A stretch of 64,000 bases of DNA from an uncultured virus (IMG/VR IMGVR_UViG_3300020048_000028) (Duplodnaviria > Heunggongvirae > Uroviricota > Caudoviricetes), in the IMG/VR virus record IMGVR_UViG_3300020048_000028; one strand, given 5' to 3'. The notes below the pieces were generated by a model. The model had not been told where the DNA came from and did no database searches. It was given only the letters and a program-made list of their open reading frames with translations. Made by a program: the position numbers and the translations under genes. This document shows, piece after piece, positions 1,335 to 30,149 of the stretch (position 1 is the stretch's first letter; each line of letters starts with the position of its first letter).

Positions 1335-1818
1335 AATAATAAATGATAATTTTTACAAATGGTTTGATAGCTCTAAGGCTATTGATGGTAATGGAAAGTA
1401 TCAAATATATTATCATAAAAGTAGGTCTAAAGAATTATTTGAAGTTTTTAAAAGTAATGAAGTAGATAAAAATGTATATAACGATTCTTGTTATGGTTTT
1501 TACTTTGTAGCTGATTATCACAAATCTCATGTCGAATATATGGGAGATGGCGTTGAATATTATGTTTTTCTGAATTATAAAAAGCCGTTCTACGTTTACG
1601 ATAATGGATTGGGCGAGATAAAAGATATGGAGGGTAATTTATATCCCTATTTGGATATAAATAAAACCTTTTGCGAAAATTTAGAGTTAAAGGGTTATGA
1701 TGCTATTATTATAGAGTGCCATAGATATTACACTCAATATGTAGTTTTTCATAGTCATCAAATTAAGAGCATAGATAACAATGGAGATTATTCCGAAAAT
1801 TTAAACATATTCAAGTAA
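1315..1818 (+). CDS. standalone ADP-ribosyltransferase-like protein (ART-PolyVal-like)
   Basis: FxxWFxxSKxxDxNG...YYH...GFYF...GYDAII...YVVFxxxQIKS-NNG pattern. Confidence 0.6.
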   Translation: MMQVFPKIINDNFYKWFDSSKAIDGNGKYQIYYHKSRSKELFEVFKSNEVDKNVYNDSCYGFYFVADYHKSHVEYMGDGVEYYVFLNYKKPFYVYDNGLGEIKDMEGNLYPYLDINKTFCENLELKGYDAIIIECHRYYTQYVVFHSHQIKSIDNNGDYSENLNIFK

Positions 1819-2372
1819 TGAAACTATCAATATTAATTTTATCCATTACGGACAGAGCAGAACAGCTTAAAAAACTTACTGATGAATTAGATATTCAAAT
1901 TGAATTGTATAATTTAAAAGATTCCGTTGAGGTATTGACTGAAATTGATAACAAAGAAAAAACAATAGGGGAAAAAAGAAATATCATTAAGGCAAAAGCT
2001 AAGGGAGAATATATCTGCTTTATTGATGATGACGATATGGTTTCAAGAGATTATTTAAAACTTATTTTTGATGAAATTGAAAAGGGTTATGATATTATAA
2101 CTTTTCATATTGATTATTTAAGAGATGGTAAAAGAGATAGTATTATTTGCCCAAGTCCTTCAATAGATGGAATTAAAATTGGAGAGGTTTTGTTTTGGAC
2201 TAATATGCTTCATTTATGTCCTCATAAAAAAAGCATATCCGATAATTTAATATTCCCTCATAAAAGTGCATGGGAGGACTTGGATTATAGTCGTGAGCTA
2301 TCTAAAATGTTATTAAAAGAACATAGAATAGATAGTGTTATTTATTTTTATTACTACAATAGCAAAAAATAA
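1818..2372 (+). CDS. glycosyltransferase family 2
   Basis: MKLSILI, IGEKRN, AKGEYICFIDDDD (DxD), ED motif. Confidence 0.85.
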   Translation: MKLSILILSITDRAEQLKKLTDELDIQIELYNLKDSVEVLTEIDNKEKTIGEKRNIIKAKAKGEYICFIDDDDMVSRDYLKLIFDEIEKGYDIITFHIDYLRDGKRDSIICPSPSIDGIKIGEVLFWTNMLHLCPHKKSISDNLIFPHKSAWEDLDYSRELSKMLLKEHRIDSVIYFYYYNSKK

Positions 2373-2389
2373 ATTAAATAAGCTAATTT

Positions 2390-2863
2390 TTAATTTGCCT
2401 CGAAAGCATTTTCATCATAAGATGATTTTAAATGTGGTGCATTGCATTCTTCAGAGTCGCATTTTTCAACTTTAGTTAGTGTGTATGTTGTTTCGTCTAA
2501 CATAGTTTCAATGGTAGCTCCGATTGATTTATCTTTAACTTTTTCTAAAGCTTCAATAATTTCTTTTTTAGATAATATATAACCAAAAGCAATAATATCA
2601 TTTGAAATCTCATTTAAAAGTTCTATAATGTGTGTTTCTGTGAATAAAGGTTTGCCTTCTTCATCTATGTTGTTTCCGATAAGATGTAACTTGTTACATT
2701 CTTTACAGATGTATATACCTGAAACCAAAGCATAATGTTCCTCTGTTCTCATTGTTACATAAATTTCATTATCTTTAAATTTTTCGTTTTTAAGAGAAAT
2801 TAGTAATTCTCCAACTGTTAATGTAGCTCCAAAAACTGCATCTTTTCTAAATACATATCCCAT
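2390..2863 (-). CDS. hypothetical protein with two Cys-x-Cys/HL repeats (possible metal binding)
   Basis: CKECNKLHL and CDSEECNAPHL in internally duplicated halves. Confidence 0.5.
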   Translation of the reverse strand: MGYVFRKDAVFGATLTVGELLISLKNEKFKDNEIYVTMRTEEHYALVSGIYICKECNKLHLIGNNIDEEGKPLFTETHIIELLNEISNDIIAFGYILSKKEIIEALEKVKDKSIGATIETMLDETTYTLTKVEKCDSEECNAPHLKSSYDENAFEAN

Positions 2864-2882
2864 TTTATTTTTTTTAATTAGT

Positions 2883-3527
2883 TTAACAATCTACTTGTGT
2901 TGGTATATGGCAAACATTGTATTCGCAGCCATTTATTTTTTTGTATTTTAAATTCGTATCAATTAGTTTATTTTTAACGAAAGTCCAATCATGTCCATAA
3001 TTATCGCATTGTAGCCAATTAATATTGGCAAATCTCCTATGTGCTATTGATGAAGTTCCAATCATTCCTTTAAACAAATCTACTTCCCTCTCTGCTTTTG
3101 ATAAAACCTCATTACTAACAGGGTTAAATCTATATATAACATAATCATTAAAATAAGCCCAAGCTAAAGAGTTATCTTCCTCAAAATTATTTGCTATATT
3201 TTGTAAATGATTTGTTCCTAAGAAATCATCAGTATCAAGATAGCATATAACATCTCCACTTGCCATAAAGCAACCTGTGTTTCTTACTACTCCTGAAAAA
3301 AGTGGTTGCTTTTCTAATTGTATAAGTTTTATTTTAGCACTTTGATATTTTAATAATTCGTTTGCTGTATGTGGACAGCCATCAGCTACAACTACTAATT
3401 CAGTATTATCGTATGATTGGCTAAAGAAAGATTGTACGGCTCTATTAAACTTTCTTATCCTATCTTCTGCCGAATCTTTATAATTATCTAAATAAGAAGC
3501 GACAACAACCGAAATTTTAATACTCAT
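2883..3527 (-). CDS. glycosyltransferase family 2
   Basis: ISVVVASY, ELVVVADG, RNTG, GDVICYLDTDD. Confidence 0.85.
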   Translation of the reverse strand: MSIKISVVVASYLDNYKDSAEDRIRKFNRAVQSFFSQSYDNTELVVVADGCPHTANELLKYQSAKIKLIQLEKQPLFSGVVRNTGCFMASGDVICYLDTDDFLGTNHLQNIANNFEEDNSLAWAYFNDYVIYRFNPVSNEVLSKAEREVDLFKGMIGTSSIAHRRFANINWLQCDNYGHDWTFVKNKLIDTNLKYKKINGCEYNVCHIPTQVDC

Positions 3528-4140
3528 GCGTTGTATATTTGAAATTTTTAAAATCTTTTTGAAATATTTTATTTACCAACTTATATGTCATTAAATTGTA
3601 GTTCTTTTCCCAATTTAAAGGACGTTTAGATTTATTAGTTAATGGTATATTTAGCGGCATTTCAAGGTCTAAATTATAAAATAAAGATAATACGTTTGAA
3701 CTGTTATTATCATTACATAAATTTTCAAATTTAAGTACGTTGTCTACGCCTAATTTATCATTAACGAATAATAAATCAGTCTGTGTTTTATAGCAGGGTT
3801 GAGATACTGTTTCCTCTCTTTTTAAGCCAACATCACTAAGCCATTCTATGAATTGATAAAATGATAAATGAATTATGTTATTATAATCAGGATGGTCAGG
3901 AAACATACAGATATAGCTATGTAAAGAAACTAACCAATCATAAGGGTTTCTAACATAAGCAAATTTTAAATAGTCCTTTATTCTCGGAAAATTAATTAAA
4001 TCATTCTTTATTGAAGAATGTAAAGGATTTGTAAATAACAAATCCTCTACTTGTTCTTTCAGCAAGATAGTTAATGTTGTTCCTCCTGTCTTTATGATAT
4101 GAGTGAAACAGAATTTGTATTTATCACTTATGATTGCCAC
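3517..4140 (-). CDS. sulfotransferase (Sulfotransfer_2-like)
   Basis: FTHIIKTGGTT (5'-PSB), VRNPYDWLVS (3'-PB), KFENL, DFxxFxY. Confidence 0.85.
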   Translation of the reverse strand: MAIISDKYKFCFTHIIKTGGTTLTILLKEQVEDLLFTNPLHSSIKNDLINFPRIKDYLKFAYVRNPYDWLVSLHSYICMFPDHPDYNNIIHLSFYQFIEWLSDVGLKREETVSQPCYKTQTDLLFVNDKLGVDNVLKFENLCNDNNSSNVLSLFYNLDLEMPLNIPLTNKSKRPLNWEKNYNLMTYKLVNKIFQKDFKNFKYTTHEY

Positions 4141-4529
4141 AAAAGTTTTTTTAATAATTCATGTCCTTTTTCATCTACAAACTCTTTCCAATCTTCTTGA
4201 CCATCTTTGATTTGATTTCTAATTGATGTAGCCGAAATATTTGCAATATTTGAAGTTACTTGAATTTCTTTTACTTCATATCCTACTCCTCTGCCATAAT
4301 TAACGCTTGCTATATCAGGAATGATAATAACTTTTACTAAATCATTTCCTTCATAAATCTTCTCCCAAATACACTTTACTTCTTCTGCTGTTAATGGGTT
4401 ATTGCCATCGGTTTCTACATCACGAATTGCAATTAGAATAGGTAAGCCTTTGTCAAGATATTCGTTGAAAATTGTTTGATGTCCTTTGTGTGGGCTTTGG
4501 TATCTTCCGATAAATAAATTATAGGTCAT
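4128..4529 (-). CDS. HxGH nucleotidyltransferase (cytidylyltransferase-like), possibly a minimal sulfate adenylyltransferase
   Basis: FIGRYQSPHKGH, NPL, ISATSIR; overlaps cysC. Confidence 0.7.
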   Translation of the reverse strand: MTYNLFIGRYQSPHKGHQTIFNEYLDKGLPILIAIRDVETDGNNPLTAEEVKCIWEKIYEGNDLVKVIIIPDIASVNYGRGVGYEVKEIQVTSNIANISATSIRNQIKDGQEDWKEFVDEKGHELLKKLLWQS

Positions 4530-4995
4530 TTGTTTTGTTTTTAGGGATTAGTATATTAGTGAATAATTTGTTTTTAAATATGTTTTCAATGTCTTTAGCT
4601 ACATCAGATTCGTTTCTTCCCGTAGTATCTATTGGTAAGAAATAACTTGTCGGAGCTTCATAGTCTTTAGCAAAAAAGTGTTCTCTGCCACGAATTTCAC
4701 TTGTGAAAATATAACATTCAAATACTTCTGTTTCTTGCTTTAATTCCTCTCTCAAATCTTTAAATGGAGATATTAAACTAATGATAGGAGTAAAACCTTT
4801 CTTCTCTAAAAATAATGCTATGTTATAAGCATTTTTTATGTTATTACGCCTTCCTGTTTCGGAATAGTCTTTATTCTTTAAAATATCTCTTAGCTCATCG
4901 CCATCAACATTTATTGAGTTTGGAATTAGCTCCAACAATTCTTTTGAAATCGTTGTCTTTCCTGCACCTGCTTGTCCTGTTAAATTAATAATCAT
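4519..4995 (-). CDS. cysC: adenylyl-sulfate kinase
   Basis: LTGQAGAGKTT P-loop, VDGDELR, DYSxxGRxxN, ISLISPF, YEAP. Confidence 0.85.
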   Translation of the reverse strand: MIINLTGQAGAGKTTISKELLELIPNSINVDGDELRDILKNKDYSETGRRNNIKNAYNIALFLEKKGFTPIISLISPFKDLREELKQETEVFECYIFTSEIRGREHFFAKDYEAPTSYFLPIDTTGRNESDVAKDIENIFKNKLFTNILIPKNKTNDL

Positions 4996-4998
4996 AGT

Positions 4999-5322
4999 TT
5001 ATTTTTGTTTTATTTGTTTTATGTTTCTATTTACTATCTCTATTATGCAATTTTCAATAGTCATTTTCTCAAACGAATTGTATCGCCAAAATTCAATAGC
5101 AAAATCTTGTTCTAAAGATTTTCCTATTATATTAGTAATATCTTCATAAGTTTGATGATAGTTAGTTTTAAAATCTACTATTTTAATTCCTTCGTGATTT
5201 ACTACTTTAAATCTATATTCAATAGCTTTAATTAAATTTTTGCAATAACTTAATTCTAAATTAGAAACGTAATCATCCAACTCTTTGGTTAAATTTTTTA
5301 CTTGTTGATGTTTATCCGCCAT
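4999..5322 (-). CDS. hypothetical protein
   Basis: 107 aa ORF packed in the operon. Confidence 0.5.
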   Translation of the reverse strand: MADKHQQVKNLTKELDDYVSNLELSYCKNLIKAIEYRFKVVNHEGIKIVDFKTNYHQTYEDITNIIGKSLEQDFAIEFWRYNSFEKMTIENCIIEIVNRNIKQIKQK

Positions 5323-16848: not shown

Positions 16849-17313
16849 ATGCAAAATTTCGATTTATCAAATCAAGAAAACTTAGACGATAACTTTTTAG
16901 GTGCAACTTTAAAAGCAAGAAAAGAAATGAAAGGCTTAACAGGCTGTAAAAAACCTATATTTATGATAGGTAAGAAAAAAAAAGCATACAATGAATGTAT
17001 CGCTAATTATAAAACTGAGGTTATAAAAAGAGCAAAAGAAGCAAAACAATTAAATGAACAATTAGCCGCTTCTTCATCAGCAGCAGCAGCAGCAGCAGAA
17101 AAAGCTAAAAAAGAATTAGAGGAAACTAAGGCAGAATTGGCGGCTTCTAAGGGTGGTTCAGGTTCTTCAAAAAAAGGTTCAGCATCATCTGAAACTGAAG
17201 AAGATGGTAAAATTTTAGGTATGTCTAAAGGTTTAGCTATTGGATTGGGAATTGGAGTTGTCGTACTTGCAGTAGGTGGCTTTGTTGTGTATAAGAAATT
17301 TATCAAAAAATAA
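16849..17313 (+). CDS. KILGM tail-anchored protein
   Basis: FDLSNQENLDD; GCKKP...YNEC shared with 15888; KILGMSKG plus TM. Confidence 0.7.
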   Translation: MQNFDLSNQENLDDNFLGATLKARKEMKGLTGCKKPIFMIGKKKKAYNECIANYKTEVIKRAKEAKQLNEQLAASSSAAAAAAEKAKKELEETKAELAASKGGSGSSKKGSASSETEEDGKILGMSKGLAIGLGIGVVVLAVGGFVVYKKFIKK

Positions 17314-17345: not shown

Positions 17346-18662
17346 ATGAAAAAAGAATTTGACGTATCAAACGCAGAAGGATTAGACGAAAGTATAACCG
17401 AAGATTATAGTAATTTTAATATTAAAGACCCATTAAAAGGAGCAAGAGATGCTGCTAAAAGAATAAGAGATGAAGCTAAACGAGTTCGTGATAGATTAAA
17501 AGAAGCTGCTAAAAAAGTAAAAGAAGAAGCTGAAAGAGTTGCTAAACAGGCACGAGATGCTGCTAAAAAAGCAGGAGATAAAGCTAAAGAAGTTGGCGGA
17601 AAAATTAAAAGCAAAGCTAAAGAAATTGGCGAAAAAGCCAAAGAAAGAGCTAAGAAAATTGCTACTAAAGCAAGAGATGAAGCTAAACGAGTTCGTAATA
17701 GTATAAAAGAAGTTGAAAAGAAAATAGGTAAAGAATTAAAAAGAGTTGCTACTAAGATAAAAGAGGTTGCCAAAAAAATTGGAGATAAGTTTAGAAACGC
17801 ATTTCGTAAAGTAATTCGAGGTTTGATTTTAAAATCTATTAAAGGAAATGTTCATGGTATGGCTGCAAGAATGTATGCAGCTATTGCAACTGAAGATGAA
17901 CTTAAAGCGAGAAAGTTTAAGCCGAAGTTTGCAGGAAATGCTAAAAAAGCTTATTCAACTATTCTATCGGAATGGAAAAAATTAGGTGGTTCTGAAAGTG
18001 AGCTTAACGATGCGATTGTATCAGGACACTCTAAACGAATGTTGAAAAATCCATTTAATAGAGCAGATGGAAATAATCACGATGAGTTTTATAGCTATAT
18101 TGCTTCTGAAGATTATTATCATGGAGCTGATGGCGATGCTACCGATGAAGAAAAGGAAATTGCAATCGCTGATGCTGAAAAAATGAAAGCTGATGAAGAA
18201 GCTGCTGTTGTTATAAATGAAGATGCAGCTACGGTAGAAGCTCCTGAAGCAGAAGAAAAACAGTCGGGCTTTAAAGCTTTTATTGCTAAAATCCTTTCTT
18301 TATTCAAAAAGCATAAAGCAGATGAAGCTCCTTATGAGGAAGGTACTCCCGAAGCTACTGATTTAGCAACTGATGAAAAGGCAGATGCAGGAAATAGACC
18401 TCCTGAAGGTGGAGATAGTTCAGTTCTTGATGAGTTAGATAAACACGCTGAGTCAGATGCTAATTCTGCTCCTAAGAATGAAGATGATGAAGATGATGAT
18501 GATGACGAGCCTGTAAGCAAAGACGGTAGTGGTAAAAAAACAACTGAAGATGGCGATGGTAAAATTTTAGGTATGCCTAAAGGAGTAGCTATTGGATTAG
18601 GTGTCGCTTTAGTTGCAGTAGTCGGTATAGTAGCTTTTAAATACTTTAAAGGAAAAAAATAA
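17346..18662 (+). CDS. KILGMPK tail-anchored protein with K/A-rich amphipathic repeats
   Basis: FDVSNAEGLDES; basic repeat region; WxKLGG domain shared with 24214; acidic linker; TM. Confidence 0.7.
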   Translation: MKKEFDVSNAEGLDESITEDYSNFNIKDPLKGARDAAKRIRDEAKRVRDRLKEAAKKVKEEAERVAKQARDAAKKAGDKAKEVGGKIKSKAKEIGEKAKERAKKIATKARDEAKRVRNSIKEVEKKIGKELKRVATKIKEVAKKIGDKFRNAFRKVIRGLILKSIKGNVHGMAARMYAAIATEDELKARKFKPKFAGNAKKAYSTILSEWKKLGGSESELNDAIVSGHSKRMLKNPFNRADGNNHDEFYSYIASEDYYHGADGDATDEEKEIAIADAEKMKADEEAAVVINEDAATVEAPEAEEKQSGFKAFIAKILSLFKKHKADEAPYEEGTPEATDLATDEKADAGNRPPEGGDSSVLDELDKHAESDANSAPKNEDDEDDDDDEPVSKDGSGKKTTEDGDGKILGMPKGVAIGLGVALVAVVGIVAFKYFKGKK

Positions 18663-18763
18663 TTAATCAAATTAACAATAATAAGTTAATATATTAATGA
18701 AAATACATGGATTCAGTTCATGTATTTTCCTATTTAAAAACTAAATTTAAAAAAAATAAAAAC

Positions 18764-21700
18764 ATGGGATTATTTGATAATAAAGAGAACTACAACACAG
18801 GTCGCTCTTGGCATTTAGACAGACAAAAACATAATAAATCTGAAGATTGGGAAAAACCAATGGATGAGCGTAAGCAGGATTATGCTGATGGTGGTGGGGT
18901 TTTTCCAAAATTATCATCTGATAAAATTAAATTCTATAAACTTGCTGATATTTCAGATTTAGATTTAGAATATGATGGCGATGAAACAGATTTAAGGCTT
19001 CATGGAAGTGAGATGTTAAATTGGGGAGCTGAAACTGAAGCTGAATATAAAGAAGCTACTGATGCTATTGATGCTATAAGCTTCAAAGGTAATGGTTGGG
19101 AAGTTTATGCTTGGTATGATGTAAGTGGCTTTAATTATTGGATGGTTCAACAAGAAGAACAAAATTATATCAACGTAACTATTATGTTTGCTGTTGATTC
19201 TATTGATGCAAGTGAGATTCCTGCAATTAAAAATGCAATGGAATCAGCTTATAGCGAAGCATATTCGATTTCGGAAAAATATGACTATGTTCCAAATTCT
19301 GAATACAAACGAGGTGGTAAAGTAGATGGTCGTAGCACTCGTGCTAAAAATACTTGGAATAGTGGTGCTTCTTGGACAAGAGATAGAAATGCTCATAACA
19401 AATCTGAAGATTGGGAAAAGCCAATGAATAAACGCAAATACGATGAGGGTGGTGGAGTTGACACATATTATAGAGTATTTGATAATCAAAGAGGTATTTA
19501 TTTTGCAACGGGATACAATGCAACTTCTATGAATGAATTGATTGAAGATTTTCAGTCTTATATTTTAGGAGCAAACGAAATAGATTTTGAACATGAACAA
19601 GGAACTGCTGAATACGAACAAGAATTAAATAATTTTTTAGGAACTTGGGATTTGATTTCTGAACATTTACAAGGTGTTGAATTAGAAGAAAGTTCTACTC
19701 CTTTTGAAGATGAATATGAATTTAAAGGAGGTGGACGAATTAAATCTGCTTTAATGCGTGATAGAGCTTATAAATCTAATGAGCCACATGAGCAAGCTTA
19801 CAAAAGAAAAAGTCGTCCAAAAAATCCTCGTTACGCAAAATACGCTGAAGGCGGTGGAGTTGATGAATTTTCAATAAGTAATCCAAAAGATTTAAACGAA
19901 TTTTGGTCTAATGATGAAAATGCAGATACACAAATATTTTTTGTTGAAGAAATGGATAATGAGGATGATAACGATACTTATTATGTCGTTGGTAATCAAA
20001 CAAAAAAATACTACGAAGATAATAAATATTGGGATTATGATTATAGTTTCAAAGATATTAACGATGCTATTAAACAAGCAAAAGAAGATGCTGAAAAACA
20101 TGGTGGTGTTTATGTGAATAACGTTAAACTTGAATACGCTGAAGGTGGCTCAGTAAAAAGCCGTTATAATACAGGTCGTTCTTGGCATTCTGACAGAAGG
20201 CAACATAATAAATCTGAAGATTGGGAAAAGCCTTTAAGTGAAAGAGCATCGGCTAATCGTTCAGCATCTAAAGGTTCAGCAGCTAAAAGTAAATCTCCAA
20301 AAGGTAAATCAAAAAATTATATGTATATCCCTAATTATATGATTAGAGGTGCTGAAGTTAATAATAGTGGTAAGACTACTGATATTGATGGAGGAAATAT
20401 TCTTGATGGTATATATGTTAAGAAAGGAACTAAATACGCTAAAGGTGGTGGAGTTGGAGCAAAAAAATCAAAAAAACAAAAAGCCATTGACCTATTGGTA
20501 AAAAACATAAAATATAGTTTTGTGAATACAGATATGGGTAGCGGTTGGAAATTTGTATTATACGCACCATTCAGTACAAGTGGATATGGAAAAGACGTAT
20601 TAGAAGAAATGAAGTATCTTGATATGTTTGATGCAGATGATATGGGCATAGAAGATTATGATAATTTATCAAAAAAAGATAAGGATTATTATTATAATGA
20701 TTGGAAAAATCAGTTATTTGATACTTATTTTGAAGTTTTTAAAGATAAAGTAACGCCTAAATACTTACACTTTTTTGAAGAAGAATTACAAAAAGATGAA
20801 TTTGGCAATGGAGGAAACGTAGGTCGTGATTTGCTTTTTAAATCAAAACAAAAGTGGGAACAAAATTACGATAGAAAGCGTGAATGGAAAGAATACAAAA
20901 AAGAAGGTTGGTTCGCTAATTGGTTTAAAGATGGCGGTAACGTAGGTCGTGATTTGCTTTTTAAATCAAAACAAAAATGGGAACAAGATTACGATAGAAA
21001 GCGTGAATGGAAAGAATACAAAAAAGAAGGTTGGTTAGCTAATTGGTTTAAAGATGGTGGAGAAGCTAAAGATTTTGACTTTGACGGATTTAGAAAACGA
21101 CAAGCTATCATCTCCGAAGCGGTTAAATTTGCTTTTGTAAGAGCCATAGGTTTTGATGACGCTTATAATTTACTACAAAATGAAGATTTATCTATTAGTC
21201 CTTATCGTTTAGTTGAAAGAGCTGTTAGTGGAGAGTTTATTGGAGTACATGAAATTAATAAAGATGTTATTGAAAGTGCAATAGATGAAGCAAGACGAGT
21301 AACAGGAAGATATAAAGATTCAGGACAAGGTATTGGTAGTAGTGATATGACTGCATTTTTGAAGAATTTTCTTGATAGTGCAGGTTTTAAAACAGCATTT
21401 ATTTCTTCTCGTTTAGAAAGGATAGATGAAAACGGTAACGCAATTAAAGTGAAAAGCGATTTGCCTAATACTACAATGTTTAAATATGGTGGTGGTATAA
21501 AGTCATTATTTAATAAAGCAAAAGAATTAACCAATAAGGGAGTTGATGCAACAAAAAAAGCAATACATGATAAAAAGAAAGAAATTGCTCTTAATGTACT
21601 TTATGATATGAAGGAAAACATTGCACGAGGCAAAGAAGAAATAATCGCAACTGATAGAGCATTTAGAATAGTAGACGAAAAATACGCCAAAGGAGGTAGA

Positions 21701-21976
21701 GTTAAAAACTACAAATACGTTCCTAATCACATGATTGAATCAGTTGATGTAGAGCGTAATGGTAAAACTACTGAAATTGATGGAGGAAATATTCTTGATG
21801 GTCTTTATGTTAAGAATGTTAAGTTTGAAGAAGGTGGATACATCGAAAGAATACCTACTGAAACTCTTGAAGGAATGGTTGGTAGAAAACTAAACGGATG
21901 GAATGATGATGTAGTTATTTATAATGGAGTAGCTTACAAAAAATGTTTCATGCAGCCTTATTATAAAATAGCCTAA
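18764..21976 (+). CDS. modular polyprotein-like protein with 13 [YF]xxGG linkers and KCF C-terminal domain
   Basis: Start likely ATG 18764 after an A-rich leader; repeated NKSEDWEKP and KSKQKWEQ modules. Confidence 0.7.
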   Translation: MGLFDNKENYNTGRSWHLDRQKHNKSEDWEKPMDERKQDYADGGGVFPKLSSDKIKFYKLADISDLDLEYDGDETDLRLHGSEMLNWGAETEAEYKEATDAIDAISFKGNGWEVYAWYDVSGFNYWMVQQEEQNYINVTIMFAVDSIDASEIPAIKNAMESAYSEAYSISEKYDYVPNSEYKRGGKVDGRSTRAKNTWNSGASWTRDRNAHNKSEDWEKPMNKRKYDEGGGVDTYYRVFDNQRGIYFATGYNATSMNELIEDFQSYILGANEIDFEHEQGTAEYEQELNNFLGTWDLISEHLQGVELEESSTPFEDEYEFKGGGRIKSALMRDRAYKSNEPHEQAYKRKSRPKNPRYAKYAEGGGVDEFSISNPKDLNEFWSNDENADTQIFFVEEMDNEDDNDTYYVVGNQTKKYYEDNKYWDYDYSFKDINDAIKQAKEDAEKHGGVYVNNVKLEYAEGGSVKSRYNTGRSWHSDRRQHNKSEDWEKPLSERASANRSASKGSAAKSKSPKGKSKNYMYIPNYMIRGAEVNNSGKTTDIDGGNILDGIYVKKGTKYAKGGGVGAKKSKKQKAIDLLVKNIKYSFVNTDMGSGWKFVLYAPFSTSGYGKDVLEEMKYLDMFDADDMGIEDYDNLSKKDKDYYYNDWKNQLFDTYFEVFKDKVTPKYLHFFEEELQKDEFGNGGNVGRDLLFKSKQKWEQNYDRKREWKEYKKEGWFANWFKDGGNVGRDLLFKSKQKWEQDYDRKREWKEYKKEGWLANWFKDGGEAKDFDFDGFRKRQAIISEAVKFAFVRAIGFDDAYNLLQNEDLSISPYRLVERAVSGEFIGVHEINKDVIESAIDEARRVTGRYKDSGQGIGSSDMTAFLKNFLDSAGFKTAFISSRLERIDENGNAIKVKSDLPNTTMFKYGGGIKSLFNKAKELTNKGVDATKKAIHDKKKEIALNVLYDMKENIARGKEEIIATDRAFRIVDEKYAKGGRVKNYKYVPNHMIESVDVERNGKTTEIDGGNILDGLYVKNVKFEEGGYIERIPTETLEGMVGRKLNGWNDDVVIYNGVAYKKCFMQPYYKIA

Positions 21977-22338
21977 TGAAATTTCAAGTAGTTGATATAG
22001 AAGAAAACAATTATATTGTTGTAGAATATAAGTCAGGGGTAATCCCTGACTTATGTATATCTATGAAAGTTTTATTTTCTTTTGATACTGTTGAAGTTCC
22101 TTTAGATTATGGTTATGGAGAATATGAAACTCATACATCAAAACAAATAGGTGTTTATATAGCAAATGAATTTGATTTAATATGTATTGCCGATAATGAT
22201 GATAATGAATTAGTTTTAGAAGAATCGCAAAATATTTTAGTACATCAAGAATCCGTAGAATATTTTAAAAATCACTTTGAGGGGTATAATTATAACGAAT
22301 TAAGTCGTAACATTAATCTTAACAGTAAGATTAATTAG
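21976..22338 (+). CDS. acidic hypothetical protein
   Basis: Translationally coupled (TAATG). Confidence 0.55.
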   Translation: MKFQVVDIEENNYIVVEYKSGVIPDLCISMKVLFSFDTVEVPLDYGYGEYETHTSKQIGVYIANEFDLICIADNDDNELVLEESQNILVHQESVEYFKNHFEGYNYNELSRNINLNSKIN

Positions 22339-22383
22339 TGAAATACATTAAAAAATATTATAAATAATTTAAAAAATAATAAA

Positions 22384-24171
22384 ATGAGCAACGAAACTAA
22401 TTTAGACTTTGATAATAAAATGGCATTAATTAATTGCGATAGAATATATGAATATGCTATTAAGATTGATGCTATTGTTACTGAAGATACTCAACTTGAA
22501 GATTGGATAAAAATGAAATTAACTATCGTAGAGCAAAACATTGCTGATGTTAAACATTCTCTTTCGGGTTGGGCTAAATTTGAATCAGGAGGAATTATAT
22601 TTAAAAAAGAATTATTGCATATTGCAAAATACGCTAAGGACTTAATTGAAATGATTAAAGGAGGTTCTCAACTTATGAGTTGGCAAGAAAATAAATTAGC
22701 TATTTCTGCTGAAAATATTGATAGCATTTATCATCATTTAGATTATAAAATGGGAAACAGAGCATCTGACTTAAATAAAGATGATGTTGAAGAAATAACC
22801 ATTAATAATTCTATTGAGTATAAGAAAGGTGGTGGAGTTAAAGAAAGAGTTTATCTTAAACAGCCATTATTTATTGAAAAAGATGCTGATGGTTTTTATT
22901 CATTTGATTTTGATTACGGAAGAACAACAGGTTGGGCTTTTGATACTGATGATATTGGAGTTGCTATCTGTATAATGTTAGGTAGTGAATATGCTACTAA
23001 TGAAGAAATTAGAGCTTTAGAGATTAATCCCCGTCAATTAAGAAATGCTGATAGAAAGGATATGTTGTATTGGTTAAGCGGAGGAAATAGAGCTTGGCAA
23101 TATGATTCTGAATATACTGAAAATTTTGATACTATCTATGATGCTATTTGGAAAGATGAGGCTTTAAGAATGAAAAAAGCTATTGTTGAATTTAAAACAA
23201 TAGGTGAAGTAATGGATTTTCTAAATCAAAAATATAAGGAAGATGCTTATTTTTTATACGATGCTCAAGATAAGGGTTATTACCGTAATGAGGAGCAAGA
23301 AGAAATGGATAGAGAGCAAGAAGAAATGGATAGAGCAGATGAGGAATATCGTAAAAATGATGAGTATATAGAATCTTATGCTAAAGAACATTACGTTAAT
23401 AAAGACACTTCTGAAGTAATTTCTGAATTAGTTTCTTATTTTGAAGAAAATGATATTGATTATGATTATGATAGAGTAAAACAACTTGTTTATGGTTATT
23501 ACAAAGAAATGGGTGATAAAACGCTAAATGTGTTTGGAAAAAGAAAATACGCTTTAGGCGGTATTGCTCCTAAAGTTTCAAATAGTGAAGCTCGTAGCAA
23601 GGTAGATTCAAGAACTCCATTTAGAGGAAGTAATGTGGCAGGTGGTTTTATTGGAGATGTTTATCTTGTTGAATCATACGGATATTATCCTTTATTTGTT
23701 TATAAAGATGGAGTGTGGTATGAGAATATGAATAAATTCTCTGCATCTACTGCAAAACAAATGAGTCAAGTAAGACCTAATGCTGAAACTGTATTATCTT
23801 CTTTAAATGAATTAGAGGCTATGTATTCTAAATATGGCAATGGCGGTAACGTAGGTCGTGATTTGATTTTTAAATCAAAACAAAAGTGGGAACAAAATTA
23901 CGACAGAAAGCGTGAATGGAAAGAATACAAAAAAGAAGGTTGGTTCGCTAATTGGTTTAAAGATGGTGGAGAGGCTAAAGAAAATACCTATGCCAATGGT
24001 GGTAATATAGATTCACAAGAAGAAATGCTTAAAAATAATCTTGTTGATGGAGAAATAAGTGCAGATACCTTAAAACGAATTGTAGGCTGTGAACTTTCTT
24101 ATCCTTATCAAATTGTAGGTGCTATTAAACTTCAAAAATGTTTCTTACGTCCTTATTATAAATTAGACTAA
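22384..24171 (+). CDS. modular polyprotein-like protein with 6 [YF]xxGG linkers and KCF C-terminal domain
   Basis: FESGG, YKKGG, YALGG, YGNGG, FKDGG, YANGG; ends KCFLRPYYKLD. Confidence 0.7.
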   Translation: MSNETNLDFDNKMALINCDRIYEYAIKIDAIVTEDTQLEDWIKMKLTIVEQNIADVKHSLSGWAKFESGGIIFKKELLHIAKYAKDLIEMIKGGSQLMSWQENKLAISAENIDSIYHHLDYKMGNRASDLNKDDVEEITINNSIEYKKGGGVKERVYLKQPLFIEKDADGFYSFDFDYGRTTGWAFDTDDIGVAICIMLGSEYATNEEIRALEINPRQLRNADRKDMLYWLSGGNRAWQYDSEYTENFDTIYDAIWKDEALRMKKAIVEFKTIGEVMDFLNQKYKEDAYFLYDAQDKGYYRNEEQEEMDREQEEMDRADEEYRKNDEYIESYAKEHYVNKDTSEVISELVSYFEENDIDYDYDRVKQLVYGYYKEMGDKTLNVFGKRKYALGGIAPKVSNSEARSKVDSRTPFRGSNVAGGFIGDVYLVESYGYYPLFVYKDGVWYENMNKFSASTAKQMSQVRPNAETVLSSLNELEAMYSKYGNGGNVGRDLIFKSKQKWEQNYDRKREWKEYKKEGWFANWFKDGGEAKENTYANGGNIDSQEEMLKNNLVDGEISADTLKRIVGCELSYPYQIVGAIKLQKCFLRPYYKLD

Positions 24172-24213
24172 GTTATTATTCACATAAAATAAAAAATATT
24201 AAAAATAGAAATT

Positions 24214-25455
24214 ATGCAAAAAAACTTAGATGATTTATCAAATGCTCAAGGCTTAGATGAAAGTATAACTGAAAATTATACCAATAATGTAAGAGATGAT
24301 TATTACGGTAATATTAATTGGAAAGGCGATGAGTACAGTAATATTGATTGGAAAGACCCATTTAAAGGACTTAGAAAAACTGTTAAAGCCGCAGGTAAAA
24401 GCATTAAAGATGCAGGTAGAGATGCAGGTAAAAATATTGAAAGAACAACTAAAGAGATTGGTAAGAATATTAAAACTACCACTAAAGAGATTGGTCAAAA
24501 TATAGAGAGAACGACCAAAGAAATTATTAAAAATAAAAATTTAAAAAAGGCTTTAAGTGCTGTATTTTTAAAATACAATCCTGCTGTTGCTATACCAAGA
24601 AGTTCTGCATTATTAGCTTTTAGGGTAAATTTATTTGGTATTTCATCTCGTTTATATCCTGCTTTTTTAGATGAGGAGTCTTTGAAAAAAGGAAACTTTG
24701 ATTTAGCAAATGCAGCGAAAGCAAAAGAGGCTTGGGAAGATGTTGCTAATTTTTGGGAAGATAAATTAGGTGGAGATAGAAATAAATTACGAGAGGCTAT
24801 AAGCGGTGCTTGGAATAAGCCAATTTTTAAAACTAAGAAATCTCAGGCAAGAAGAAGAAGTACAGGTTATCTTGGTTTTTATGGTACAAATGAGTATATT
24901 ACTATGGCAGAAGAAAATTTCTCAGGATGTGACGGGAGTTTTGATGGCATAGATTTAGATAGCATAAATAAAGAAACTTTATTTGGAGATGTTAGCGTTT
25001 TTTATGAAGATGAAAAATATTCTAATTTTGACCCTTGGAGTGATGTTGCTATTGGTATTTATATCAGTTTGGGTTTAAGTGTTATTGGATATATAGCAGG
25101 TGCGATAGGGAAAAAAGGAGCAAGTAAAAATCCTTATAACGATGGAAGTCCTCAAGCTCAAGGTTTTAATACTCAATTACAAGGAGCAGGTACTATACCT
25201 CCTGCTTCTGAAGCTGAATTAGATAAAATAATAGCGGCTGCTAAAGAGGATAGAGAAAAGGGATTAGGTTTAGATAGTACAGGTCTTGACTTAAGACAAT
25301 TAAATGATGATGAAGTAGTAGTTAATAAAGATGGAACTATCAGTAGAAAAAGCGGTAAGATTTTAGGCATACCTAAAACTGCTTTTTGGATTGGAGTGAG
25401 TGTATTGGGAATATTAGCAGGAATTATAATATATAAAAAGTTTATTAAAAAATAA
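24214..25455 (+). CDS. KILG tail-anchored protein, paralogue of 17346
   Basis: DLSNAQGLDES; KDPFKG; WEDKLGG; YITMAEENFSGCDG shared with the putative MCP. Confidence 0.7.
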   Translation: MQKNLDDLSNAQGLDESITENYTNNVRDDYYGNINWKGDEYSNIDWKDPFKGLRKTVKAAGKSIKDAGRDAGKNIERTTKEIGKNIKTTTKEIGQNIERTTKEIIKNKNLKKALSAVFLKYNPAVAIPRSSALLAFRVNLFGISSRLYPAFLDEESLKKGNFDLANAAKAKEAWEDVANFWEDKLGGDRNKLREAISGAWNKPIFKTKKSQARRRSTGYLGFYGTNEYITMAEENFSGCDGSFDGIDLDSINKETLFGDVSVFYEDEKYSNFDPWSDVAIGIYISLGLSVIGYIAGAIGKKGASKNPYNDGSPQAQGFNTQLQGAGTIPPASEAELDKIIAAAKEDREKGLGLDSTGLDLRQLNDDEVVVNKDGTISRKSGKILGIPKTAFWIGVSVLGILAGIIIYKKFIKK

Positions 25456-25459
25456 AAAT

Positions 25460-26143
25460 ATGCAAAATTTAGATTTATTAAACAGAGATAAAATTGAAGA
25501 AACTTTTGGTATCAATGGATATTATGGTGATGGACAAATGATGAATTGGTTTGCTCCTCCTTCTGCTATTAAAAATGTTAGAGGTGTTGATTATGAATCT
25601 ACTCCTTATGGTGTTCCTACTGATGAGTTTGAATGGGTTAAGAGAAATAGATATAACAGAGAAAGAATAGCAAATAATCTTCAAAACACTACTAATATTT
25701 ATCCTTCCGCTTTGCCAAGTGGAGATAGATTAGAAGATTATTTTAATGTTGACGCAGGTGTAGGTAGAGGAGGCGAAGCAGCGGCAGGAGGAGGCTTAGT
25801 TGTTGTTGAAAACATTATTAATAATGAATCTAAGGGTATAAGTACAGGTGGTATTTTTAACGATGTTAAAGCGGTAGCGGTTCAGTCAGCAAAGGCAGAT
25901 TCAATTAAAGTACGCACAGCAAAAGCAGCAGAAACTAAAGCAGAAGCTAAAGCAGAAAATAAATCATCAGATTCTAAAAAAACAGATTCAACTAAAAAAA
26001 CAGACTCAACTAAAAAAGATGCCGATGCCGTAGAAACATCTGATAAAATTTTAGGTATGCCTAAAATGGTTGCTATCGGTTTAGGCGTTGTTATACTTGC
26101 TATCGGTGGCTTTGTAGTTTATAAAAAATTTATTAAAAAATAA
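25460..26143 (+). CDS. KILGMPK tail-anchored protein
   Basis: C-terminal DKILGMPKMVAIGLG...KKFIKK. Confidence 0.7.
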   Translation: MQNLDLLNRDKIEETFGINGYYGDGQMMNWFAPPSAIKNVRGVDYESTPYGVPTDEFEWVKRNRYNRERIANNLQNTTNIYPSALPSGDRLEDYFNVDAGVGRGGEAAAGGGLVVVENIINNESKGISTGGIFNDVKAVAVQSAKADSIKVRTAKAAETKAEAKAENKSSDSKKTDSTKKTDSTKKDADAVETSDKILGMPKMVAIGLGVVILAIGGFVVYKKFIKK

Positions 26144-26146
26144 AAT

Positions 26147-26980
26147 ATGACATTTTCAATTCCTTCAAATGGATTACCGTTCAGCCTTATGGTTGGTATT
26201 AAAACTAATAAGCCTGAAACTATTTGCATAGAGGCTAAAGATGCCTATAAGCCTGATTCTATTTATATAGGTAGAAATGGATTGATTAAAGACGGTTATC
26301 GTGTTTTTGAGTTGAAATTTCCTCAAAGTCCTAAGCTTATGCAAATTTCAATCTTTAATAAATCTAAAGGTAATTATCCAAGTAATGAAGATAAGTCTTT
26401 TGAAATTGTAAAATTTGAACCTAATGAATTAAAAAGCTGTCCTCTTTGGGCTGATAAAGATATTCACAACTTCGTTAAATTTGCACAAGATTTTTGTGGA
26501 AATTCAAGTGTGATTTCGGCAGGAGATTACAAGCCAAGTATTTATCGTTCTGATTGTGGAAAATTCTGCATTGATTATTATAAAAAAATAAGAAATAGAA
26601 AAACAGGTCAATATGTAAGTACCCCTGCAAGAATTGGTCATAGTACAGGTATTATAGAAATATCAAAAAGTGATTTTGATAAATATACTATTCCTATGCG
26701 TATGGCTATTTTGTTGCATGAATTTTCTCATAAATACATGAACCCTAAAATTGGTAGAGAGATTTCTGACGAAGTATCCGCAGACGTTAATGCTCTGAAC
26801 ATATATTTATCTTTAGGTTATCCTCATATCGAAGCTCAATACGCTTTCTTAAAAGTATTTAAAGGTGCTAACAATGAATTTAATAAAAAAAGATATTTAA
26901 TTTTAGATGATTTTATTAAGAAATTTGTTGGAGGCGAACTTGAAAATCGTTGTTTGAATACGCAGCTTCAAAAATCTTAA
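26147..26980 (+). CDS. zincin-type metalloprotease (HExxH)
   Basis: AILLHEFSH followed by ExxAD (DEVSAD), M48/M78-like arrangement. Confidence 0.7.
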   Translation: MTFSIPSNGLPFSLMVGIKTNKPETICIEAKDAYKPDSIYIGRNGLIKDGYRVFELKFPQSPKLMQISIFNKSKGNYPSNEDKSFEIVKFEPNELKSCPLWADKDIHNFVKFAQDFCGNSSVISAGDYKPSIYRSDCGKFCIDYYKKIRNRKTGQYVSTPARIGHSTGIIEISKSDFDKYTIPMRMAILLHEFSHKYMNPKIGREISDEVSADVNALNIYLSLGYPHIEAQYAFLKVFKGANNEFNKKRYLILDDFIKKFVGGELENRCLNTQLQKS

Positions 26981-26989
26981 TTTAATTTT

Positions 26990-27682
26990 GTGAAAAAAAA
27001 AGATGTCGATAAGTTATACGGCTTAGATGGTGGTTGGGATGAGTTGTTACTCACAGCTTATAATCAAACATCTTCTGACGTTTTTTTTAATTTCTTTGAC
27101 CCTCTTATTGTTCAACAAGTGGAAGTTCCAACAACTCCATCTTCGGGTTTTTACATAAGCAGTAGCAATAGTAGTGATAATTATAATCAAGCTGTAAGGG
27201 ATTTTCTTTATAACCCATGTTGGACAAGAAGGATATATGTTTATTCAAAAACTGAACAAAACTTAAATCAAGTAATTAATCATATCTACAAAGATGCCAA
27301 TGGTATCGAATGTCAGATTCCAAGATTTCCAAGTTTATCGGTTGGTATAAATCAGTTTCAGGGTTGGATTGGTGAACTTGATTTCCCGAATAAGGAAACT
27401 GTATTTGGAATAAATCAATGGTTTAAAAATGTTTTAATAAAAGCTAATAGTGAAATAGGCTTTCTTTTGATTTACAAACAAATTGATAAAAGTAATATGT
27501 TATCGGTATCGAATAATTGTGATTATTGTCCTGCTGAATTAAGAAAATGGAATGAAGATGATTTGTTGCTTAACGATTATTCTTTAGTTTCTGAATTTAA
27601 GCAGAATATGTATGAAGGTGAAACTCAACCTGCCGTCAGACCTTTTGATTTTTCGATATTAAAAGAATGGCAAGGAAAATAG
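26990..27682 (+). CDS. paralogue of the putative capsid protein (minor capsid?)
   Basis: YNQ...NP...NQVI..YKDANG.ECQIP...NQFQ; GTG start. Confidence 0.6.
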   Translation: MKKKDVDKLYGLDGGWDELLLTAYNQTSSDVFFNFFDPLIVQQVEVPTTPSSGFYISSSNSSDNYNQAVRDFLYNPCWTRRIYVYSKTEQNLNQVINHIYKDANGIECQIPRFPSLSVGINQFQGWIGELDFPNKETVFGINQWFKNVLIKANSEIGFLLIYKQIDKSNMLSVSNNCDYCPAELRKWNEDDLLLNDYSLVSEFKQNMYEGETQPAVRPFDFSILKEWQGK

Positions 27683-27780
27683 TATTTATTAACCTAAAAT
27701 GTGTTTAAAACTATATCAGTATAATAAAATTAACATCAAGATAAATTATATATTTAAAACAAAATTTAAAACTTAAAAAC

Positions 27781-27930
27781 ATGGCAAAAACAGTTAAATC
27801 CGCAAACAAGGATAGAATGACAATGATTCAAGGCGAAGCTAAGAAAATTTGGGCAGAAGGTAAATGCAAAAAATATTCGGATGCGGTGAAACAGGCTTGT
27901 GTGTCGCTGAAGAAGCAAGGTAAGATGTAA
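27781..27930 (+). CDS. 49-aa basic helical protein (not in ORF track), possible DNA-condensing protein
   Basis: MAKTVKSANKDRMTMIQGEAKKIWAEGKCKKYSDAVKQACVSLKKQGKM; A-rich leader. Confidence 0.65.
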   Translation: MAKTVKSANKDRMTMIQGEAKKIWAEGKCKKYSDAVKQACVSLKKQGKM

Positions 27931-28114
27931 TTTTTCATAAAATAAATTGGCGATGAGTTCCATCCTTTCAGCCTTTGGATATGAAAGTTCAACTGTTAAC
28001 GCAGCTCAGTTTGTCGATGAATTAGGAATAAAACATCAAATGTTAAGGTTTGTATAAGTTTTTAAGAACGGTAAGAGTGCAAATGAAAAAAATGAAAATT
28101 AAATTATAAAACGA

Positions 28115-29671
28115 ATGGATAAACATTGGGACAACGAATATAGAGATGGTGGCTCAATTAGCAGCGACAGAACATTCACAGAATGGGATTTCAATAAGTT
28201 AATGGCTTCTGATAAATTTCGTGCTGTATGGAGTGGAAACCTTTGGGAAATAATAGAGGAAGGTAGAACAACTGTTTTAGGTAAATTCAATCCTAAAACA
28301 AAATCATTATATATTTCAGGAGATAAAAACATGGACAACTTCTTAGTTGTTTGGATGACTGAAAACGGATTCGTTAATTCTGAGGAATATGCTATTTTAG
28401 CAAATGGAGGTGGAGTTGGCAATGATTGGTTTTGGAATCATGCTTATAGACATTACATGAGAGATGCTTCTTTAGAACAAAGAAATAAAGTTAAAGAACA
28501 ATTTATCAAAGAGGGTTTAGAATTAGATGGCGAAAGTCCAAGACACGCTTATATTGTAGTAAGTATAGTAAGTCCTGAAGAATTAAAATATTTTTCTAAA
28601 GTTGGCGATAATGCTATTCGTTTTGATGACGGTGGTGGAGTTGAAAGAATTGATTTGTTTGAAGATTACGAAAACATACCTGAAAGAGTACAAGTAGTTT
28701 TAGATACATATCAAGATGCTTTTGAAAATGGAGATTATAAACAATTAGCCATAGCTAATAGAACATTAGAAAGAATAGGTTATACTTTTGATTATGGTTT
28801 AGATGGACAAGCATACGGTTTAAGACCAATAGGAGTTCCTTTAAATGAATTGAAAGGATACGAAGATATGGGAGAAAATTACGCTAATGGTGGTGGAGTT
28901 GGTTCTTATCCTTACGAGCTAACTATTTTGGTTAGCAATAAGGATTATGCGAAAATTATAATACAAAGGTATAATGGTATTATATTAGAAGAATCTTCAA
29001 AAGATAACGGATATGAATTTGCTTTAGGAAGTTATGATTGGAGAGTATTAGATAAAATAGCCGATGAATTACATGATAAAGGCTTTTTTATTTCTCAATA
29101 TGCCAATGGCGGTGCAATAAAAACTGATTTCAACGAATTAGAAAATACTGAACTTAGAAATGTATTAATTTCCTTTTGGAATGATTTTTTTAATAATCCT
29201 ATCTGTAATTATTTATCAATACAAAAAGAGAATTATATATTATCAAACATTGATAATGTATTTGTTATTGTTAGAGATGAAGATAAAGGCATTTTTAGTG
29301 ATATTGAAAAACAAAATATTGATATGTTTTTAAGTCCTTACTTTGACTCAGATAAAAAACCTTTGTTTACTGAATTTTTTAATAAATATAAAATAAAGGA
29401 TAATAAAATAATAATCTATATTAAGGAAGGAAATATGTACGCTAATGGTGGTGGAGTTGAAATAGCAGATGATTACGCTGATTTAAGATTTGCCTCTAAA
29501 CAGTTTTCTAAAACGGCAGAAATGTTAGTAAGAGAAAATTTTAATAATGGAGAAATCTGTATGTGTAAACTTACTAAGATACTTGGACATGAACCTAATT
29601 ATCCTATTCAGATTGTTGGTTCTTTAAAACTTGAAAAATGTTTTATGAAAAGATTTTACAAATTAGCATAA
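28115..29671 (+). CDS. modular polyprotein-like protein with 6 xxxGG linkers and KCF C-terminal domain
   Basis: YRDGG, LANGG, FDDGG, YANGG x3; ends KCFMKRFYKLA. Confidence 0.7.
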   Translation: MDKHWDNEYRDGGSISSDRTFTEWDFNKLMASDKFRAVWSGNLWEIIEEGRTTVLGKFNPKTKSLYISGDKNMDNFLVVWMTENGFVNSEEYAILANGGGVGNDWFWNHAYRHYMRDASLEQRNKVKEQFIKEGLELDGESPRHAYIVVSIVSPEELKYFSKVGDNAIRFDDGGGVERIDLFEDYENIPERVQVVLDTYQDAFENGDYKQLAIANRTLERIGYTFDYGLDGQAYGLRPIGVPLNELKGYEDMGENYANGGGVGSYPYELTILVSNKDYAKIIIQRYNGIILEESSKDNGYEFALGSYDWRVLDKIADELHDKGFFISQYANGGAIKTDFNELENTELRNVLISFWNDFFNNPICNYLSIQKENYILSNIDNVFVIVRDEDKGIFSDIEKQNIDMFLSPYFDSDKKPLFTEFFNKYKIKDNKIIIYIKEGNMYANGGGVEIADDYADLRFASKQFSKTAEMLVRENFNNGEICMCKLTKILGHEPNYPIQIVGSLKLEKCFMKRFYKLA

Positions 29672-29696
29672 CAAAAAAAATATAAATAAATGTATC

Positions 29697-30149
29697 ATGG
29701 CGATTAAGAAGTTAAAAAAAGCAGAAAAGCCTACTGTAAAAGATAAGGATGAAAAAGCTAAACCGACAGGTTATCGTTTTAAGACTAAGGATAATCCTAA
29801 GTTAGAAAAAAAAGACGGAACTTTGAATAAAAAAGGTAAAGAGCTTTATTATGCACGACCAACTAAAAAAGAAGTTGAGGAGTATAAAAGAAATCCTGAT
29901 GGTTCTTATGACGATGATGTAAAACAAATATATCACGAAACAAGAGCTGACCGTAAACACTCTGACGATAACTTGAAAAAGAAGTTTGAAGAAGGTGGAG
30001 ATACTGTTTTACCTTTTATAGTAGAAAAGAGTATGGAAGATATGAGAGTAGCATTAGGTCGTGAGCCAAATTATCCTTACGATTTTATTAATGGCGAAAA
30101 GTATGTAAAATGTTTTTTACGTCCTTATTACGCTTTAAAAGATAAATAA
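29697..30149 (+). CDS. basic protein with FEEGG linker and KCF C-terminal domain
   Basis: Ends LGREPNYPY...KCFLRPYYALK. Confidence 0.7.
   Translation: MAIKKLKKAEKPTVKDKDEKAKPTGYRFKTKDNPKLEKKDGTLNKKGKELYYARPTKKEVEEYKRNPDGSYDDDVKQIYHETRADRKHSDDNLKKKFEEGGDTVLPFIVEKSMEDMRVALGREPNYPYDFINGEKYVKCFLRPYYALKDK

Follow-up and report, generated by a model that had tools for sequence, protein, structure and literature searches.

How does a phage delimit, carry and possibly set free the many unrelated domains that it strings together in one polypeptide? The question is raised by four genes in a 64,000-nucleotide stretch of DNA (the window) from an uncultured virus of the Caudoviricetes, IMG/VR record IMGVR_UViG_3300020048_000028. 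Their products, polyproteins A, B and C and the shorter protein D, consist of segments joined by a recurrent short motif, [YF]-x-x-G-G. In a preliminary description of the locus, these proteins had been taken for concatemers of effectors that are packaged in the virion and released by cleavage after Gly-Gly. We find a modular architecture in which the junctions lie at domain boundaries, modules are shuffled between related phages and the last domain is constant, and the proteins are kin to others that contain anti-restriction and host-manipulation domains. The explanation that we prefer overall is that they are multi-module polyvalent proteins that would be targeted to the virion by the tail domain and cut at the junction by an endopeptidase; we give it a probability of about one half.

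The junction motif

Polyprotein A (18707..21976, + strand, 1089 amino acids (aa)) comprises 14 segments and carries 13 copies of the motif, with the Y or F at aa 59, 200, 245, 339, 379, 477, 577, 699, 740, 781, 925, 993 and 1040. Its start had been placed at 18764, which is an internal ATG and an alternative start; the longest open reading frame (ORF) begins at 18707, and a 92%-identical relative is called from the longer start. Polyprotein B (22384..24171, + strand, 595 aa; eight segments) has six copies, at aa 66, 146, 389, 484, 525 and 536, and polyprotein C (28115..29671, + strand, 518 aa; seven segments) has motifs at aa 9, 95, 170, 256, 329 and 442. Protein D (29697..30149, + strand, 150 aa) has a basic N-terminal part followed by one motif (aa 97). 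The counts first given stand for A, B and D; for C, to which six had been assigned, five are strict and the one at aa 95 reads LANGG. It was correctly noted that x-[VI] follows most of the motifs (21 of 25).

When the residues of the four proteins are shuffled, 1.62 ± 1.25 motifs arise on average, and none of 5000 shuffles held more than 10, compared with the 25 observed. Y, F, M or L occupies position -3 in 26 of the 32 GG runs of these proteins, and the junction extends to an eight-residue consensus, [KE]-[YFM]-[AK]-[KND]-G-G-x-[VI], without proline. The other + strand ORFs of at least 100 aa in the window (n = 58) contain 12 scattered [YF]xxGG, none of which fits this wider consensus.

The same picture emerges from 269 relatives, pooled from searches with C and A, which yielded 1,837 unique GG contexts. 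Y, F, M or L is found at -3 in 78% of them, and the 1,047 contexts with Y or F hold information only at -4 to +4, in the form [KE]-[YF]-[A>K]-[KND]-G-G-x-[VITM]. Proline at -3 to +3 was seen 0–6 times, against 24 expected, and outside that span it occurs at the expected rate. A word-indexed search with C gave 275 matches; among the 120 listed, there are 656 [YFW]xxGG in 72,127 aa, or about one per 110 residues. The motif is also found near chain ends, with leaders of 15 aa or less in 32 of 226 proteins and tails of 3 aa or less in 24 of 240, and relatives contain tandem motifs one residue apart, such as YAKGG-Y-MSDGG-M-MADGG. Because the codons of the motif differ at synonymous sites (TAT/TAC, GCT/GCC/GCA, GGT/GGA/GGC), selection acts on the peptide.

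Variants of the junction were observed in other polyproteins. Those of loci L018 (2157-7007), L040 (1444-3498) and L035 (13247-16252) have a conserved N-terminal segment with S-H-x-x-G-G-[IV], for which no Pfam match was found, and the L018 polyprotein (more than 1617 aa) has an alternative junction, [KFH]-A-A-D-G-x-x-[VIL], beside YANGGG.

Modules and their boundaries

The segments between motifs are 40–243 aa long, and most of them show no relation to the others by BLAST, as the preliminary description had held. Only three small basic modules depart from this, in that they repeat within and between A and B; a 41-aa basic repeat is common to these two proteins at 85–86% identity.

If the motif delimits modules, domain boundaries should coincide with it, and they do so in module flanks, in BLAST breakpoints, at the ends of HMMER matches and in the coil of a structural model. 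The most widely shared module, DLFEDYENIP...GYTF[DE]Y of polyprotein C (28643..28885, + strand, aa 177-257; phrog_37263 match), has GG-x-[VI] before it and [YF]AxGG after it in almost every one of its 97 occurrences. Where it is N-terminal, the protein begins M-I-D-L-F-E-D-Y, and where it is C-terminal, the protein stops shortly past the module. In an all-versus-all BLAST of 123 mosaic proteins, a motif lay within 10 residues of 42% of 2,144 internal starts and 41% of 2,003 ends of high-scoring segment pairs (19% for random positions), with breakpoint peaks that are sharp at the Y and just past GG or GGxV. A HMMER search with A against 1.84 billion representatives gave 626 matches at E ≤ 1e-3; among the best 150 of these, 118 stretches cover a single motif-delimited module, and a junction lies within 12 residues of 93 of the 150 starts and 104–105 of the 150 ends (26% at random). 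The AlphaFold2 (AF2) model of C, built from a 37-sequence mosaic alignment of uneven depth along the chain, consists of compact domains separated by coil (mean predicted local distance difference test (pLDDT) 70.7, predicted template modelling score (pTM) 0.30). All six GG pairs of C fall within coil segments of pLDDT below 50, which together account for about 22% of the chain, while the DLFEDY module and the C-terminal domain reach pLDDT 91–97.

The modules also exist on their own. Among the 150 best HMMER matches to A, standalone homologues were found for M2 (17), M11 (3), and M4, M8 and M12 (one each), which bears out the expectation voiced earlier that such homologues would exist. M2 (18896..19318, + strand, aa 64-204) represents an alpha/beta-looking family of small domains with many standalone homologues of about 130 aa, which start with M-x-x-IKFY about eight residues past the GG of A. 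M11 (21062..21493, + strand, aa 786-929), which elsewhere is standalone or the C-terminal domain of large proteins, accounts for 47–48 of the same 150 matches and gave no Atlas lead. The DLFEDY module forms a standalone protein of 73 aa in a Saccharicrinis metagenome-assembled genome (L016, 9992-10213) and the N-terminal domain of motif-free proteins of 431–756 aa in 15 Chryseobacterium/Elizabethkingia loci. Among the 120 listed relatives of C, about 106 share one module only (C ~163-260) and about 22 the C-terminal domain.

When 28 related polyproteins were cut at the motif and the pieces clustered, the order and content of modules proved to be reshuffled between related phages. One module pair is swapped between C and an 81%-identical relative, and B-type modules occur in C-type proteins. 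As for known families, A, B, C and D have no match in Pfam or NCBIfam and, except for one module of C, none in PHROGs, and in a Foldseek search of the PDB, nothing matched the AF2 model of C at an E below 0.01.

The shared C-terminal domain

A, B, C and D have in common a C-terminal domain of about 45 aa, a feature that the preliminary description did not mention. It lies at 21839..21973 in A (aa 1045-1089), 24004..24168 in B (aa 541-595), 29507..29668 in C (aa 465-518) and nucleotides 30000-30146 in D, all on the + strand, and has the pattern ...EPNYPxQIVGxxKLxKCF[LM]xxYYK, with an NGWNDD variant in A. In C, it is modelled as a small fold of helix and beta-sheet (pLDDT 91–96). The six-frame translation of the window contains exactly four occurrences of the pattern, which are the four C-termini, and in the 28 related polyproteins the domain is always last, however the modules before it are shuffled.

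A second type of ending, ...[FC]-x-Y-[SET]-I-G-G-[LF]-stop, which resembles the junction but stops one residue past the GG, was observed in 21 of the 269 relatives, compared with 53 that have the KCF..YYK domain. Examples of the Y[SET]IGGL type are P0380, P0283, P0269, P0343, P0355, and the proteins at 18048-18716 of L028 and 8433-9305 of L029.

Relatives and host

The relatives of A–D contain LPD11, DUF2958, DUF6496, RadC, GNAT, Zeta toxin, ArdA, pseudouridine synthase, RelA_SpoT, SNF2/Sno-type helicase and PAPS reductase domains. The earlier view of the proteins as concatemers of independent modules with an anti-defence or host-takeover role is thus borne out for the concatemers and for the relatives, which have known anti-restriction and host-manipulation domains; A–D themselves match none of these domains. 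Because this repertoire is that of the polyvalent proteins (Iyer et al. 2017, PMC5512222), we read A–D as such proteins, and there is little doubt in our minds that they are modular polyvalent proteins. According to the available part of that article, polyvalent proteins combine two to fifteen disparate domains in one polypeptide, are encoded by phages, plasmids or conjugative elements, often adjoin virion or late genes, and are predicted to be injected with the DNA and proposed to be processed by zincin-like peptidases. Their described network of domains includes ArdA, RadC, LPDs and MPTase. The likeness to A–D lies in the many disparate domains in one phage polypeptide, the predicted delivery with DNA, the proposed processing by a zincin-like peptidase and the domains of the relatives that are typical of the family (LPD11, ArdA, RadC, GNAT, RelA-SpoT, a helicase and DUF2958). 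The locus differs from the systems described there (PMC5512222, as far as available) in that the zincin is encoded by a separate gene, not as a domain of the polyprotein, and in that the modules of A–D match none of the named domains. The words 'linker' and 'glycine' do not occur in the available text of PMC5512222, nor were the junction motif and a common C-terminal domain found in it. Searches of a limited library for motif strings and for polyvalent-protein, processing and linker topics did not find such a junction either. While injected multi-domain proteins as such are known, these searches, as far as they reach, brought up no description of a universal junction, of a shared tail domain or of a plug-in architecture.

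Relatives of the cluster proteins sit on IMG/VR viral contigs. A scan of metagenomes found one locus (L018), and an IMG/VR locus search with B and C found no relative. A megablast of the A–B region against the phage collection and a tblastn of C against plasmids gave no match. In bacterial genomes, such proteins are rare: of 401 representative Bacteroidota genomes, one matched P0037, in its DUF2958 part only. The phage lineage is uncultured as far as the collections show, and its host, judged from where the modules occur, is probably a member of the Bacteroidota.

Packaging, cleavage and a candidate peptidase

In the mechanism that we favor, the shared C-terminal domain would bring each string into the virion or the ejection apparatus, and the strings would be delivered into the host with the DNA. 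The virion of crassvirus PhiCrAss001 stores cargo proteins gp45 and gp46, which are ejected before or with the DNA, and one compact cargo domain binds the portal (PMC10172136, in the part available). This portal-binding domain, of cargo protein C1, is a precedent for an anchoring domain, on the analogy of which the tail domain may be a virion-targeting signal. The cluster sits in a long run of + strand genes (G+C about 30%), and tail-fibre-like, SLT and endolysin genes lie downstream in the window. From the gene neighborhood and the analogy with polyvalent proteins, delivery in the virion seems somewhat more probable than not.

The junction, in turn, would be recognized by a site-specific endopeptidase, and cutting there would free the modules while the virion matures or once the strings have been injected. 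The consensus, bounded, eight residues long and free of proline, looks like a substrate extended in an active-site cleft. Moreover, the motif is kept at the extreme ends of chains, which a pure inter-domain spacer would not need. We put the chance that the junction is cut at just short of even.

A Ulp1/adenain-like protease, whose presence on the contig the preliminary description had suggested as a test, did not come to light: no C48 (PF02902) match was found in four related contigs that are 53–84% complete (the control matched one genome), and no such Pfam family occurs among the ORFs of the window, which covers 64 kb of a contig that is at least 153 kb long. In the same four related viral contigs, S78 prohead protease had no match. 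Adenain C5 (PF00770) and S77 had none there either, and these two results are uninformative, since the PF00770 control matched nowhere and the S77 control was silent. An in-built peptidase domain was rejected, since any HExxH is found in only one of the 269 relatives. RadC/JAB was likewise rejected as a general junction protease: it is found in few relatives and is absent from the window, and a Prok-JAB match, inside the RadC module of L019, is sub-threshold. JAB domains include peptidases that cut after Gly-Gly. RadC-like JAB modules were observed in L019 (10210-12381, P0044-like), P0091 and P0061.

The sole peptidase-like gene of the window is a standalone, zincin-like ORF between B and C (26147..26980, + strand, 277 aa), which is our candidate for the enzyme. 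Its family comprises 831 homologues (49–100% identity), and H191-E192-x-x-H195, E209 and D213 are invariant in an alignment of 25 members. The AF2 model (pLDDT 87.6, pTM 0.87) has an N-terminal beta-sandwich (residues 1-96) and a helical domain, in which the HExxH and the Glu ligand are on the consecutive helices 182-202 and 209-222. By VIA-align, the zincin domain superimposes on Escherichia coli BepA/YfgC (M48) with Z 7.9 (root-mean-square deviation 4.1, 120 residues aligned) and on the putative Zn peptidase 3c37 with Z 6.6. Weak matches in BFVD were to viral 'Peptidase M48' (E 4e-3 to 5e-3) and enhancin. There was no match to Pfam or NCBIfam and none to PDB sequences (0 with the family profile). 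A weak Atlas lead, DUF4344 (score 0.88), was set aside. The gene adjoins junction-bearing polyproteins in the four closest loci (L019-L022), there are smaller motif-bearing proteins in L028 and L029, and the family is conserved in all 11 IMG/VR loci retrieved through it. Were the enzyme a zincin, the bond that is cut might be the one before the conserved V/I (P1') rather than the one directly after GG. We regard this ORF as a doubtful candidate for the junction-cutting enzyme.

Several observations weigh against packaging followed by cleavage, or against this enzyme. Both steps are inferred, from sequence and from analogy. The Z scores of 6.6–7.9 are middling and in the range in which chance matches can arise, so the fold assignment of the zincin rests mainly on the invariant residues, and a Foldseek search of the PDB with its model matched the beta-sandwich only. 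The family is not specific to the motif. No ORF with three or more motifs lies within 10 kb on either side of the zincin gene in L024, L025 and L026 (on the L025 contig, there is a polyprotein 17 kb away, L034), in L023 and L027, the motif-bearing ORFs near the gene encode ambiguous, fibre-like proteins rich in glycine, and a zincin-family ORF is found in none of six other loci with DLFEDY polyproteins (L035-L040; contig fragments, fetched DNA). The gene always stands behind a run of genes for tail-anchored proteins, and the enzyme may thus have other substrates. The low AF2 confidence at the junctions may in part be due to the mosaic alignment, which is patchy. None of the modules of A–D matches a known family, and the anti-defence role is drawn from the relatives only. 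Finally, no isolate relative came to light when 50,697 phage records were searched by tblastn with A, C and the zincin ORF, which gave no match.

Alternative explanations

The strongest alternative is that the junction is an uncleaved connector, a Gly-Gly hinge flanked by aromatic and beta-branched residues that would let the domains of the intact protein fold independently and, during ejection, thread singly through the narrow tail channel like beads on a string. The AF2 model of C agrees with this, as it puts every junction in coil and gives the domains no fixed arrangement (pTM 0.30), and the motif has no dedicated protease in tight linkage with it, which also counts against cleavage. There are parallels in the cargo of crassviruses, which partially unfolds to pass the tail and in the available text on which 'cleav' and 'proteoly' do not occur (PMC10172136), and in the vRNAP of phage N4, a polyvalent protein that is packaged unprocessed (PMC5512222, available part). 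However, a passive linker should not keep an eight-residue, proline-free consensus across hundreds of unrelated module pairs, nor should it be kept at the very ends of chains, N- or C-terminal, where it has nothing to join. We consider a mere connector unlikely.

Next, the motif might be a short linear motif at which a single partner docks repeatedly, for example an adaptor for packaging, a chaperone, part of the ejection channel or a factor of the host. The tandem copies one residue apart suggest avidity, the motif is retained at chain ends including the Y[SET]IGGL caps (21 of 269), and its sharply bounded information is typical of linear motifs; the tandem copies and the capped ends are no less well explained by binding than by cleavage, a further point against the latter. 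However, no candidate partner was found, and the strict placement between modules is more typical of processing sites in polyproteins. As protease sites are also linear motifs, the sequences do not tell docking from cleavage; docking nevertheless seems to us rather improbable.

It is very improbable that the motif is a DNA-level recombination joint that promotes module exchange and whose peptide has no function of its own: the motif is exactly where homology breakpoints cluster, and relatives have their modules shuffled, but codons within it vary synonymously, its variable third and sixth positions interrupt nucleotide identity, and its conservation follows amino-acid classes (Y/F/M, V/I/T/M).

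Neighboring genes

D follows C directly, and its orthologues come after a polyprotein in L019-L021. Upstream of C, there is a basic 49-aa ORF (27781..27930, + strand), which is standalone at the same place in L019, L020 and L021 (65–80% identity). The gene after the zincin (26990..27682, + strand, 230 aa), to which no function is assigned, has homologues directly 3' of the zincin gene in L019-L022.

Four paralogous proteins, each with a transmembrane helix near the C-terminus, are encoded at 16849-17313 and 17346-18662 (both + strand), and at 24214-25455 and 25460-26143. They have an N-terminal M-x-x-x-D-L-S-N..GLDESI, and a tail of ...KILGMPK, the transmembrane helix and KKFIKK. Runs of 3–10 such tail-anchored proteins stand 5' of the zincin-like gene in all 11 related IMG/VR loci, and they may be the primary substrates of the zincin or parts of the ejection channel.

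Between A and B, a 120-aa ORF (21976-22338) has a sub-threshold match to AcrIIA4 (E 0.021, 14.8 bits against a cut-off of 40), and no homologue of it was found in the related loci examined. ARAGORN places a tRNA-Cys (anticodon ACA) at 19632-19712, within ORF A, which is most likely a false positive. Genes for glycan modification are found at 1818-5322 (glycosyltransferases, galactose-3-O-sulfotransferase-like and cytidylyltransferase/kinase-like), and a second sulfotransferase at 56365-57198. The ORF at 55598-56368 matches a homing endonuclease family (phrog_314, E 2.8e-20).

Comparison with other systems

Adenain of adenovirus and pS273R of African swine fever virus cut virion precursors after Gly-Gly. 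As in the sites of these enzymes, a hydrophobic residue stands a few positions before Gly-Gly at the junctions, here too at the joints of putative virus precursors. The locus differs from them in that the hydrophobic residue is one position further out (Phi-x-x-G-G instead of Phi-x-G-G) and that no C48 match was found in the four related contigs or in the window.

MARTX-type toxins and polyubiquitin precursors also consist of concatenated modules that are freed by site-specific cleavage. The units of polyubiquitin end in GG, the last one with a one-residue cap, which resembles the Y[SET]IGGL ends of 21 of the 269 relatives. However, there is no homology to either system, and the present modules are mutually unrelated, are not beta-grasp repeats and are without an in-built protease. 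It is a speculative idea, to which we would give a few per cent at most and for which the one-residue caps are the only support, that freed ...GG C-termini might mimic ubiquitin-like proteins.

In phages, IPI-III of T4 are anti-restriction head cargo processed by the prohead protease. DarA and DdrB of phage P1 are likewise processed anti-restriction cargo of the head, cited in the available part of Iyer et al. (PMC5512222). These proteins are single-function, with one targeting or cleavage site, whereas A–C are concatemers. The cargo proteins of crassviruses, in the available part of PMC10172136, are similar in being large proteins encoded by phages of Bacteroidota. No sequence relation between them and A–D was detected, however (no PHROG match), and they are not described there as shuffled strings of modules with a repeated junction.

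Conclusions

In phages and conjugative elements, polyvalent proteins are regarded as a principal carrier of early anti-defence functions, and the present locus bears on how such domains may be marked off, packaged and freed. The universal junction is a rule by which hundreds of uncharacterized metagenomic proteins can be divided into candidate effectors, many of which have standalone genes elsewhere as well. The C-terminal domain that the four proteins have in common might serve as a portable tag with which to load proteins into virions. The locus may tentatively be seen as a true polyprotein strategy, although the odds are somewhat against it, with interchangeable effectors, one virion-targeting tail and release by a protease, possibly the zincin, at a universal Phi-A-x-G-G-x-V junction. 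If so, any module placed between two junctions would automatically be packaged, delivered and released. The junction motif makes the processing hypothesis directly testable. Should cleavage not occur, the motif would still be an unusually conserved connector in need of explanation; should it occur, phages would have in this system a counterpart to the way in which eukaryotic viruses process their polyproteins.

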